Below, piece after piece: positions 3,001 to 9,000 of a DNA stretch of 64,000 nucleotides. The stretch lies in assembly GCF_045037415.1 (NCBI RefSeq), contig NZ_CP173438.1; one strand, written 5' to 3'. Each line of letters opens with the position of its first letter. Position 1 is the first letter of the stretch. The position numbers were made by a program. Source of the DNA: Escherichia coli. GTDB taxonomy: Bacteria; Pseudomonadota; Gammaproteobacteria; Enterobacterales; Enterobacteriaceae.

Positions 3001-6000
3001 ACGGAAAAATTTTCGTGAGTTATCAATGGTAATCATCTGCCCCGATATTTCGGGGCATTTATCTGGAAGGAAGAGAGACAATGAACCACTACACACGCTG
3101 GCTTGAGTTAAAAGAACAAAATCCCGGAAAGTACGCGCGTGACATCGCAGGTTTAATGAATATCAGCGAAGCAGAACTGGCATTTGCGCGCGTCACGCAC
3201 GACGCGTGGCGGATGCGCGGCGATATTCGTGAAATTCTGGCGGCGCTCGAAAGTGTTGGCGAAACCAAATGTATTTGCCGTAATGAATATGCAGTCCATG
3301 AGCAAGTTGGTGCGTTCACAAACCAGCATTTGAACGGACATGCCGGATTGATCCTCAATCCGCGCGCGCTGGATTTACGTCTGTTTCTCAATCAATGGGC
3401 CAGTGTTTTCCACATCAAAGAAAACACGGCCCGTGGCGAACGCCAGAGTATTCAGTTCTTTGATCATCAGGGCGATGCATTACTAAAAGTTTATGCCACC
3501 GACAATACCGATATGGCGGCATGGAGTGAGCTTCTGGCACGGTTTATCACCGATGAGAATACGCCGCTTGAGTTAAAAGCCGTTGATGCGCCAGTTGTTC
3601 AAACGCGAGCCGATGCCAGTGTGGTCGAGCAAGAGTGGCGGGCGATGACCGACGTTCATCAGTTTTTTACGTTGCTCAAGCGTCACAATCTGACGCGCCA
3701 ACAGGCGTTCAATCTGGTGGCAGACGATTTGGCCTGCAAAGTATCCAACAGTGCGTTGGCGCAAATTCTTGAATCTGCACAGCAGGATGGCAATGAAATC
3801 ATGGTGTTTGTTGGCAACCGTGGCTGCGTACAGATTTTCACCGGTGTGGTAGAAAAAGTGGTGCCAATGAAAGGTTGGCTGAATATTTTCAACCCGACGT
3901 TTACTCTTCATCTATTAGAAGAGAGCATTGCTGAAGCCTGGGTTACCCGTAAACCGACCAGCGATGGTCACGTAACCAGTCTGGAATTGTTTGCCCATGA
4001 TGGTACGCAGATAGCGCAACTTTATGGTCAACGTACAGAAGGTGAACAGGAGCAAGCGCAATGGCGTAAGCAAATTGCTTCGTTGATACCGGAAGGCGTT
4101 ACTGCATAACGTATAATTAACGGGAGGTCTGGCTGTTGCTGGGCCTCTTTATATTGATCAATCGTTCACACCAGATAATTAATATGCTGATGGCGTACCA
4201 GCTCATTGATCCGCTTAAGATTGAGGATCATCATGATATTGTGTTTATGGCAGTAGAACGTTTTTAGCGATATTTTCAGTTTCTCCAGAATATCTTCCGT
4301 TGTCATTTGATTCGCAATACAGCTCAGAACCTGATGCTGCTTGCGCGAGAGGGACACATCCGCTTCAGGCACAGAGCAGTAACTGCCATTGATGAGTGCG
4401 ACAAAGTCGATGATGGCGATAGTTCGCGGAACAAAGGTCACCGGTACTTTCCCCAGGCAGCGTTTAATATTAAAGGGGGAGAAAATAATTACATGGACAG
4501 GTTTTAATCGTTCAATTTGAGTGAGAAAATTAGAATGAAATACATTATTCATTAATGTATCAATAATGACGAAGGCATTCTGATGCAACATTACGTCGAT
4601 CTCTTCTTCGTTCTGTATATGAACGACATTACCTTTACTCAGAATGTTTTTCATCGCGGTGAAAAACATCGTATCCCTGGTAATTATAAGAAACATAACC
4701 GACTCCTGGTACGGACATTAACTTTATAATCAGTTTGCCAAAGGTAATTAACAGGACAGGGCTTATAATAATAGTTAGCTTACTGTGTATTAATTTGATG
4801 TAATGCATGATGCAGATGCTGAGAAAGCATCTGCATCTTTCGGTGGTGTTATTTGACCAGCTCAGGTGTTACCTGACTCACCGCATTGGTGTAGTAAGGA
4901 GCCCCCCAGCCCGGTTCCGGCCAGAATGCACCATAGCCGTAATCCCACAGGTTATAGGTGGTATTAACCACTTCTCTCAAATGCCACACCTGGATGCCCT
5001 GCATATTCACTTCGAGGAAGTTATACGGGACTTTATTGATAAAGCCAGGTTGTTCACCCTGAATGGTACCGAGGATGGTAACAAAGTGATTACGATAGTT
5101 CACTGGATCAAGGAAGCCGCTTTGTCTGGCGAGCAGTCGGCCCTGATAGTTGGCTTCAATATCAGGCTTCGCATAGCTATCCAACGGTAATACAGCGATT
5201 TCTAACAACGTATCCGTTTTGCCATTGATAACGTTGATAACCTTCCCACCAAAGCGCGCTTGTTGACCAACATATAACCCCGGCTGGTTATGAACAGCAA
5301 CAAAACTTTTTTGAATATCAGGTTGGTTATTGCCTTTGATATTTTGCGGAATTGAACTACATGCGGCAAGCAAAAATGAAAGGCTGAGGATGAGTGCACC
5401 TTTTGTCATGTTCATGTTACTATCCTTATCAACAAATATTAAAACCATAATAGATATTTCTTTATAGTTTTCATCTGATTCTGAGGCGATATGCCTGATA
5501 GTAACGTAAACCTGTCTGATGTTTATATCTCTTCTGTTTAGTTGAGCTCAGTTAATTTTTGGGCGTGGCATGAGTATCCATTGTTCCATAATTTATATTA
5601 GGAGGTTTTTAATCTTTTCGTGTCTAATGTTATTTATCTGATTAAGTATTGATTGTGTCTTTTGCGGAAGTGGTGTCGAGCTTATCGTTTCAATGTTATT
5701 AATAAGACTTACAAGTTGAGCCTCAACTTTGAGTAGTCTGCATTTGTATATGTGGTGTTCGTATGGCACGCATTAATTTGTTGGCGTTGTTGTTGCGCTA
5801 AATCAAATTGTTTAGAGGTGTATCCTTCTCCAGAGAATGGGGAATTAATGGGTTGTTGTTCTTCCCGGTTATCACAAGGCCACTTCGGTGTGTCTGGCGT
5901 TTTAACATTATCGGTATTTGTTGTGCAGTTATAAATATCACCGTTATATGTATTTATTACACCTGGGGTAAAGTCAATTGACATAACATTCCTTATTCAT

Positions 6001-9000
6001 CATTTGTTTTATGCTAAGATTTTAAAATTGGATAATTAGAACAGGAATGGATTTTCTTCTACATACAGTAAATATAATGCGTCATATCTTCCTGATATAA
6101 TTACCTTTGACTTCTCTTTTATTTCCATCTGGTAATATTTGAGTGCAAAAAAAGGCAATAATAATATCGCAAAAGAAAACGTTAACAACTATCGAAAATG
6201 CTCGTTTTAAAAAGGTATGATGTTCTCTGATAGTGTGTGAAGTGATATTTTTGTGATGTTTTAGATATGTAATAATAAAATGGGTTAACGTATGTTGAAA
6301 TTATTTATTGTGCAAACCACTGATAGATCATAATCCAGTACATCTTTACAGTGCTGCACTGTATCGCTGATAACTAAGCAGCTCACTGATACACCATGCT
6401 GGACGCGATAATTGGAATCTCACGCAGGGAGTACTGTGTAAATAGCAAAATCGCCTGATGCGCTACGACTGTCAGGCCTACAAATAACATACAATTCATC
6501 GAATTATCATAACGTTGTAGGTCGGATAAGACGCGTCAGCGTCGCATCCGACATAAATAAAGCGCATTTTTCTAACAACCTGTGGGGGAATATAGCCGCT
6601 TTATTTCAGGCGATTACCCGCCTCATCAACCACTTTCTCGCCATCTTCCTTGGTGAACGCGCCTTTTTGCGCATCTGGCAGAATTTCCAGCACGACTTCT
6701 GAAGGGCGGCACAGGCGAGTTCCCTGTGGCGTCACCACAATCGGGCGATTAATCAGAATCGGGTGCTGAAGCATAAAGTCGATTAACTGATCGTGAGTAA
6801 ATTTATCTTCTGCAAGGCCCAGTTCCTCATACGGCTCGACGTTTTTACGCAGCAACGCGCGTACGGTAATCCCCATATCGGCAATGAGTTTTACCAGCTC
6901 ATCGCGCGTCGGTGGTGTTTCCAGATAATAGATAATGGTCGGTTCTGTACCGCTGTTGCGGATCATCTCCAGCGCATTACGCGACGTACCGCAGGCCGGG
7001 TTGTGATAAATGGTAATGTTGCTCATATCAGTATCTCATTACAATGTGAAAGAGAGGTGTAGCGCCAGCGCCACCAGCGTTACAAACCAAAGCGGACAAG
7101 TCAAAAACACATATGGTTTAACGAATATGTAAGTGTAGAGAAAGGTGTAGGTGTGAATTAAGCGTTGGGCATTCATTTGAAAGGAGGTCTGAATCAGGAC
7201 GTAAAAAAACCGACTTCGCGTCGGTTTTTTTACTGTTCAGCCCTGAGTTGGTGGCTCTGGCTGGAGTGAGATAGCCCACATCTAACAATGAGACATGCTC
7301 CGTGACAGGCAATGGATGAGTAAGCGGATGCATTCTCACTCCATCGCATGGAGAAAACGGGTGATTGATAAAGCAATCATCGTTCTTGGGGCGTTAATTG
7401 CGCAGCTGGAACTGATCCGCTTTCTGCTTCAGCTTCTGAACTGATAGCGGAAACGTAGCTAAGGGCTAAGAGCACACTACTCTTAGCCCTTTAACATTTA
7501 ACGCATTGTCACGAACTCTTCTGCTGCTGTCGGGTGAATGGCAACCGTGTTGTCGAAGTCTTTTTTGGTTGCACCCATCTTCAGCGCCACCGCGAAGCCC
7601 TGCAACATTTCGTCCATACCAAAACCAATGCCGTGAATACCGACAATCTTCTCTTCCGGTCCAATGCATACCAGTTTCATGCGACACGGCTGGCGGTGAG
7701 TGGTGACGGCGGTATACATCGCGGTGAAAGAGGATTTATACACTTTCACCTGATCGTCGCCGTACTGCTCGCGCGCCTGCGGCTCCGTTAAACCAACAGT
7801 ACCAATCGGCGGATGGCTGAAGACCACGGTCGGAATGTTGCTGTAATCCAGATGCTCATCCGGCTTGTTATTAAACAGGCGTTCAGAGAGACGGCGACCT
7901 GCTGCAACTGCCACCGGAGTCAGTTCCACTGCACCCGTGTTATCGCCCACCGCGTAAATACCTTCAACGTTGGTGTTTTGATATTTATCGACGACGATAT
8001 AGCCTTTTTCGTTGGTTTTAACGCCAGCGGCTTCCAGGTTGATGTTGTCATTGGCAGGCTCGCGACCAATCGCCCAAATCAGGCAATCCACCGTTTCACT
8101 GCGACCATCTTCCAGCTCCAGCGTCAGGCTGCCGTCGGCATTTTTCACCACCGCTTTCGGGATGGCGTTGGTATGCAACTGTGGGCCTTCGGCGTTCATC
8201 ACTTCGACCAGCGTTTCAGAGATCATCGGGTCGAAGCTGCGCAGCGGCGCATGTTTACGCACAAACAGATGCGTCTTCGCACCGAGGCCGTTAATCACGC
8301 CCGCCAGTTCAACGGCGATGTAACCCGCGCCAACAACCGCTACGCGCTCTGGCAAAGCCGGAAGGGCGAAGAAGCCATCAGAATCAATACCGTATTCCAC
8401 GCCCGGAATATCCGGGTGGCTCGGACGACCACCGGTGGCGATCAGAATATGATCGGCCGTGATGGTTTCGCCGTTGACTTCAATGGTTTTGGCATCAACG
8501 AAGCGGGCAAAGCCTTTGATTACATCAACGTTATTTTTACCGAGCACGTTCTCATAGGAAGTATGAATACGGTCGATATAGGCGGTACGGCTGGCGATCA
8601 ATGTTTCCCAGTTGAATTTATTGATAGTGGTATCAAAGCCGTAATCCGGGCCGTACATATGGATCGCTTCACGGATTTGTGCCGCGTGCCACATCACTTT
8701 TTTCGGCACACAGCCAACATTTACGCAGGTGCCGCCCAGCTCTTTGGCTTCAATCAGTGCGCATTTCTGGCCGTACATAGCCGCGCGGTTGATGGAGGCG
8801 ATACCGCCGCTGCCGCCGCCGATGGCGATGTAATCATAGTGTTTAGTCATGACATATTGTCCTTATCGTTGATTACCGCGATTGTAGCGCGAGACGTAAT
8901 AGGTGCCAGCAATGGCTGCAATTACTCTGGCACGATCCAGCTTACGGTGGCGTGCCCGGTGCCTGCTGGAACCAGTTTGCTGTGCAGCCACGGCAGCACG

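Follow-up and report, generated by a model that had tools for sequence, protein, structure and literature searches.

A probable decayed remnant of yhiS in the AT-rich spacer between slp and arsC of an Escherichia coli genome

The yhiS gene of Escherichia coli K-12 (yhiS-1/yhiS-2, b3504; UniProt P37635) is a pseudogene split into two halves by IS5 (PMC8170033). It has been treated as uncharacterised (PMC8170033, PMC6928379), and the literature on YhiS function yielded nothing beyond this description. The locus considered here is the slp-arsC spacer in a stretch of 64,000 nucleotides from E. coli contig NZ_CP173438.1 (the whole stretch is referred to as the window). A first-pass annotation of this DNA stated, correctly, that K-12 carries an IS-disrupted yhiS at this position, and drew attention to an open reading frame (ORF) of 91 amino acids, suggesting that it might be either what is left of a decayed gene or a small gene specific to the lineage. 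The comparisons presented here indicate that this ORF is the front end of yhiS, cut short by a frameshift and a deletion, and not an orphan gene. Very probably yhiS has decayed neutrally in the phylogroup B2 lineage, the 91-amino-acid ORF being the leftover open frame of the allele found in strains of sequence type (ST) 131. This reading is drawn from the homology, the lesions, their distribution among strains and the missing conservation of the frame, all of which are directly observed.

The spacer occupies exactly positions 5416–6600, between slp (4849–5415, minus strand) and arsC (6601–7026, minus strand), both placed by ORF listing and comparison of annotations. It is AT-rich, as first described, with a GC content of 35.2% (33.8% without its repetitive extragenic palindromes (REPs), and as low as 27% around 5900–6200), compared with 52.0% for the window, 45.9% for slp and 50.9% for arsC. 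By megablast against 5426 complete E. coli genomes, the spacer is found in essentially all. SK1144 and O25b:H4-ST131 strains match it at 100% identity, which places the origin of the window in an ST131-like B2 E. coli. In most other strains the spacer is ~0.9 kb longer, and a gene of 1116–1224 bp lies there at the position and on the strand of the ORF. The order slp, yhiS or its pseudogene, arsC is conserved in SK1144, S30, K-12, ATCC 25922, IMT5155, HH97, O157:H7, W150 and BL21, and in the window the yhiS pseudogene allele likewise sits between slp and arsC on the strand common to both.

The ORF (5709–5984, minus strand) begins with ATG, preceded by a Shine-Dalgarno sequence (AAGGA) 6 nucleotides upstream, in agreement with the first description. 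Both elements are those of full-length yhiS. ORF listing and alignment resolve the product into YhiS residues 1–85, collinear and in frame with the full-length protein at ~87–90% identity (8–11 amino-acid differences in the first 84 codons), followed by 6 out-of-frame residues and a stop codon. Thus the question of whether the ORF is a yhiS fragment, also raised at first pass, is answered in the affirmative. The frameshift follows codon 85, where the coding strand reads AAA instead of the AAAA of in-frame alleles (TTT versus TTTT at 5728–5730, a 1-bp gap at 5730/5731 in the alignments). Because one A is missing from this A4 run, the terminal LRLNL and the stop codon are out-of-frame read-through. 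A second-frame ORF of 58 amino acids (5593–5769, minus strand) corresponds to YhiS residues ~87–124, its translation matching residues 87–125. As claimed, the 91-amino-acid product is enriched in Thr, Asn and Gln (T12 N11 Q8 D7 P6 C3), while the accompanying claim of Cys enrichment fails with only three such residues; its N-terminus, read from the sequence, has no hydrophobic stretch, consistent with the reported lack of a signal peptide.

Homology to the intact allele ends at ~5614 and picks up again at 5595. The junction between these points (5596–5613) consists of 18 bp of filler without a clear counterpart in the intact allele of AP024130.1. Relative to that allele (locus L008), 919 bp are missing (L008 positions 3373–4291), comprising yhiS codons 125–407, the stop codon and 67 bp downstream, or 70% of the gene. 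The inactivating lesions are therefore two, the -1 frameshift and the 919-bp deletion. Recombination between two direct repeats of the S30 sequence, ATTATGG(GGTG), was considered as the origin of the deletion but not adopted, as the comparison with AP024130 left the 18 bp of filler unassignable. The remnant as a whole, codons 1 to ~124 (5605–5984, minus strand), aligns to the 5' part of full-length yhiS and is already known: on the identical DNA of SK1144, the RefSeq Prokaryotic Genome Annotation Pipeline (PGAP) annotates it as a pseudogene, with the wording 'hypothetical protein; frameshifted; incomplete; missing C-terminus'. The exact 91-amino-acid sequence has also been deposited, on at least 1000 contigs, as 'hypothetical protein' or, in UniRef, 'YhiS'. 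The label 'orphan' given to the ORF at first pass is contradicted by both records. No Pfam or NCBIfam family matches the product above threshold, and an exhaustive HMMER search of 1.84 billion cluster representatives returned only YhiS and its fragments, and outside these no stand-alone homologue of similar length in other taxa.

The distribution of the deletion was followed with a 151-bp probe across the junction. This junction is present in 1052 of the 5426 complete genomes, each time as one full-length match on a chromosome. Named carriers are O25b:H4-ST131, ATCC 25922, Nissle 1917 and an ST95-type avian pathogenic E. coli strain; ST131, ATCC 25922, ST95-type strains and Nissle 1917 are taken here to belong to phylogroup B2. 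Sorted by identity to the window over the ORF region, 591 genomes reach at least 99% (the ST131-type allele, 291 bp), 461 fall between 95 and 99% (those sampled being other B2 strains, with 289 bp), and ~4340 fall between 90 and 95% (sampled non-B2 examples have 292 bp and lack the -1 frameshift). All ST131, ST73 and ST95-type alleles examined share the -1 frameshift, to which a +1 insertion and a 3-bp deletion have been added in those of ST73 and ST95 type. In ATCC 25922 and IMT5155, which share both the deletion and the -1 frameshift with the window, the additional lesions are a T insertion at codon ~54 and the 3-bp deletion, and the ORF from the old ATG ends after 56 residues. HH97 has the deletion without the frameshift, and a product of 127 amino acids. 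The first-pass annotation had named in advance a frame not conserved across strains as evidence against a small gene, and the frame is indeed not kept, at 91, 56 and 127 amino acids in close relatives. The remnant half of its proposal therefore stands and the small-gene half does not. As every named carrier examined is B2, the junction at 5596–5613 could serve as a lineage marker, and the +1 and -1 indels within the remnant distinguish the allele of ST131 type from those of ST73 and ST95 type.

Together these alleles suggest a sequence of events, and both this order and the absence of function are what we infer from the comparison. The spacer was once the site of yhiS, an AT-rich gene of 407 codons restricted to E. 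coli and Shigella. A deletion of ~919 bp in the common ancestor of the B2 carriers would then have removed codons 125–407 and a further 67 bp, ending just short of the slp upstream region. The frameshifts are placed after it because HH97 shows the deletion without the frameshift. Loss of an A from the A4 run of the coding strand would have produced the -1 frameshift seen in ST131, ST73 and ST95-type alleles, and the +1 insertion and 3-bp deletion would have followed in the ST73 and ST95-type alleles, slippage indels of this kind presumably accumulating once the deletion had occurred. The 91-amino-acid ORF would then be simply the stretch that is still open from the old start codon, with no function of its own.

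Three observations weigh against neutral decay. First, the old promoter region, the Shine-Dalgarno sequence and the start codon are intact, so that transcription of the remnant and synthesis of the 91-residue peptide could continue. Second, the 84 in-frame codons before the frameshift show a ratio of non-synonymous (dN) to synonymous (dS) substitution rates of 0.37–0.45 against other alleles, rather than 1; however, most of the divergence behind these values predates the inactivation. Third, the ST131-type allele is nearly invariant across ~590 genomes, a pattern explained equally well by a young clone and by constraint.

The full-length gene shows what has been lost. Intact YhiS has a standard length of 407 amino acids, some of its protein clusters hold thousands of members, and all matches in protein searches come from Escherichia or Shigella. 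BL21, like numerous further E. coli, carries an intact 407-amino-acid form (WP_000020596.1) and O157:H7 a 371-amino-acid form, while yhiS has an internal stop in S30, is frameshifted in W150 and is split by IS5 in K-12. Many other N-terminal fragments with differing out-of-frame tails are present in public protein collections, and this variety of truncations points to repeated independent inactivation. No Pfam or NCBIfam family matches full-length YhiS above threshold, and HMMER against the 1.84 billion representatives (clustered at 50% identity) gave one full-length YhiS cluster plus fragments. The only outside similarity consists of three weak, multi-stretch matches of long pentapeptide-repeat proteins to residues 204–283 (E-values of 1e-5 to 6e-4). 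Against the Pfam pentapeptide-repeat model PF00805, the S30 allele scores 10 bits (E = 0.7) where the gathering cut-off is 20.2, and two further alleles (P0001 and P0062) give no match. These matches are a hint of a short beta-helix-like segment, without establishing membership in the family, and the segment is in any case deleted from the window. An AlphaFold2 model of 407-amino-acid YhiS built from 12 alleles was unusable (mean predicted local distance difference test score 38, predicted template modelling score 0.27). A tblastn search against phages found no homologue, and three apparent plasmid matches were set aside because the records, at 4.8–4.9 Mb, are presumably misfiled chromosomes. 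Nothing therefore points to a mobile-element origin.

Within the species, yhiS divergence is unusually deep in comparison with the adjacent slp. Between the yhiS alleles compared (L002 positions 2855–3970 and L008 (AP024130.1) positions 3001–4224), S30 and AP024130 differ with dS 0.31 and dN 0.12, and protein identity among intact alleles falls as low as 77%. For slp, the window and S30 differ with dS 0.04 and dN 0, the protein being identical. As dN/dS is ~0.39 even between these full-length alleles, YhiS is a weakly constrained orphan restricted to E. coli and Shigella. The same deep divergence, together with the many independent inactivations (IS5 in K-12, stops and frameshifts elsewhere, the fixed B2 deletion), might instead indicate that loss of YhiS was selected, through antagonistic or diversifying selection on a surface-exposed or otherwise targeted protein, the B2 remnant being one result. 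In a weaker form of this idea, the 91-residue fragment would still be made in ST131 and have residual activity. This reading is improbable.

Another alternative, regarded as very unlikely, is that the 91-amino-acid ORF encodes a functional lineage-specific protein, an N-terminal YhiS fragment that would have acquired a new function and be expressed in ST131-type strains from the retained promoter and Shine-Dalgarno sequence. The intact ATG and AAGGA, the ~90% conservation of the upstream region and the recurrence of an identical ORF (~590 complete genomes, at least 1000 contigs) are all compatible with such a gene. However, sister B2 lineages with the same deletion break the frame differently, ending after 56 amino acids in ATCC 25922 and IMT5155. 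Furthermore, the C-terminal LRLNL is frameshift read-through, the identity across ST131 reflects clonality, there is no family match, and PGAP flags the locus as a pseudogene. Also very unlikely is that the spacer acts mainly to regulate or silence slp-dctR and the acid fitness island, for instance by nucleating H-NS-type nucleoid proteins, the yhiS remnant being kept for that role and not by chance. H-NS commonly binds AT-rich, horizontally acquired DNA in E. coli, the GC content is 27–34% next to the slp upstream region and the deletion ends just before the conserved block at 5416–5595, but all B2 carriers have lost 0.9 kb of this AT-rich DNA while keeping slp-dctR, and the remnant gathers indels freely. 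Nothing in the present comparisons favours either of these two rivals.

On either side of the yhiS remnant the spacer retains conserved upstream sequence. Beside the deletion, positions 5416–5595 (minus strand) are collinear with S30, K-12 and AP024130 at 92–95% identity, and their position suggests that they form the slp upstream regulatory region, including its promoter. The region upstream of yhiS (5985–6300, minus strand; ~30% GC) is 88–91% identical to K-12, S30, AP024130 and W150 and has homologues in essentially all E. coli. A scan for sigma-70 promoter patterns gave 8 sites against 5.9 ± 2.5 expected, no excess over chance, and a scan for terminator patterns gave none. Rfam searches at a permissive E-value identified no RNA family within 5416–6450, their only matches being to the REP-like naRNA4 and, beyond the spacer, to AgrB.

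The arsC-proximal part of the spacer bears the scar of a second, older deletion. Positions 6301–6388 form its junction and have no counterpart in W150 or AP024130, both of which carry ~1.6 kb here that encodes an ArsP_1-type permease (333–337 amino acids) and a divergent ArsR-family helix-turn-helix (HTH) regulator (98 amino acids). These pairs lie at positions 1006–2422 of L008 and 2866–4270 of locus L010. In the window, positions 6389–6458 (plus strand) hold the 3' end of such a regulator, its last 23 codons and stop, as judged from alignment to WP_001175589.1 of W150. The translation of the remnant (YTMLDAIIGISRREYCVNSKIA, then stop) resembles that of the W150 protein (YAMLEAIIEFLREECCVNSKIA, then stop), with a DNA identity of 86% over 79 bp. 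The remnant is collinear with this annotated ArsR/SmtB family member at the same locus, the HTH domain itself being absent from the window, and the full regulator gene in AP024130 matches PF12840 and PF01022. The best-conserved block of the spacer, 6354–6453, overlaps the remnant. In the window, as in K-12, S30, BL21 and O157, the regulator gene is reduced to its last 23 codons, so that this second scar is shared among them. The scar at 6301–6458 marks the loss of a pair formed by an ArsR-family regulator and an ArsP-type permease. The pair may be present in roughly 40% of complete genomes, judging from megablast coverage classes.

The REP elements reported at first pass were recovered as a pair in inverted orientation, a bacterial interspersed mosaic element (BIME) at 6453–6552, downstream of arsC. 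The assignment draws on motif count, folding and copy number. The two copies, at 6453–6481 and 6517–6552, fold as expected, and the canonical tail CTTATCCGACCTAC is present in 6 copies in the window, where 0.07 would be expected by chance. The same 37 bp of REP recurs elsewhere in E. coli genomes, and megablast also gave REP-only matches elsewhere in genomes and on a plasmid. Weak Rfam matches to naRNA4, which is REP-derived, fall at 6520–6563. The element is thus an extragenic, multi-copy, inverted pair of imperfect palindromes with a conserved tail. Next to it, a perfect 10-nucleotide inverted repeat (AAATAAAGCG / CGCTTTATTT) with a 32-nucleotide loop spans the arsC stop codon at 6555–6606. 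In the 3' transcript of arsC this repeat forms a hairpin, which may belong to the 3' end of the gene or to its terminator; it was not flagged by the terminator pattern scan.

Several neighbouring loci also differ from K-12. Between 7027 and 7497, the window lacks arsR and nearly the whole of arsB (1686 bp missing relative to K-12). It retains arsC and the final 61 bp of arsB (to 7087), and then joins sequence 39 bp upstream of arsR. This leaves arsC an orphan without the ars operon promoter. The same state is found in SK1144, and in HH97 arsC adjoins dinQ without arsB or arsR. Beside dinQ (7090–7290) there is one Agr antisense-RNA repeat, compared with two in K-12 (agrA and agrB), and the region is ~400 bp shorter than in K-12. 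Rfam identifies the repeat as AgrB (91.6 bits; 7201–7285, minus strand), outside the spacer. On the other side, the heme-uptake genes chuS and chuA (3081–4109 and upstream) adjoin dctR-slp, where K-12-like strains have yhiD-hdeBA. Strains positive for chu include phylogroup B2, and this arrangement fits a B2 background.

Taken as a whole, the spacer is in all likelihood non-coding debris interspersed with ordinary intergenic elements, its two deletion scars explaining the AT-rich gap. Function is likely for the slp promoter region (5416–5595) and, downstream of arsC, for the REP pair and the hairpin. The consequences are modest, as a gap is explained and one candidate 'new small gene' is struck off. 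YhiS itself illustrates clearly how an orphan gene confined to one species can decay repeatedly.

In comparison with described systems, the REP pair departs little from the REP/BIME elements of E. coli. It has the two imperfect palindromes of ~30–36 nucleotides, the GTAGG...CCTAC-type tail, the inverted arrangement and the position beyond a convergent gene end, and differs only in that its first copy has a slightly degenerate tail (CTGTCAGGCCTAC). Compared with the intact 407-amino-acid alleles of yhiS (WP_000020596.1 of BL21 and the set P0001–P0111), residues 1–85 of the ORF and residues 87–124 of the second frame are collinear, whereas residues 125–407 are missing, including the only segment with outside similarity (204–283). 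The K-12 gene shares with the window allele its slp-arsC locus, its start codon and its N-terminal sequence, in which 11 non-synonymous sites differ over the first 84 codons, and both alleles are inactivated. However, K-12 carries an IS5 insertion and keeps nearly the whole coding sequence, whereas the window allele has no insertion sequence and shows a frameshift and a 919-bp deletion instead.

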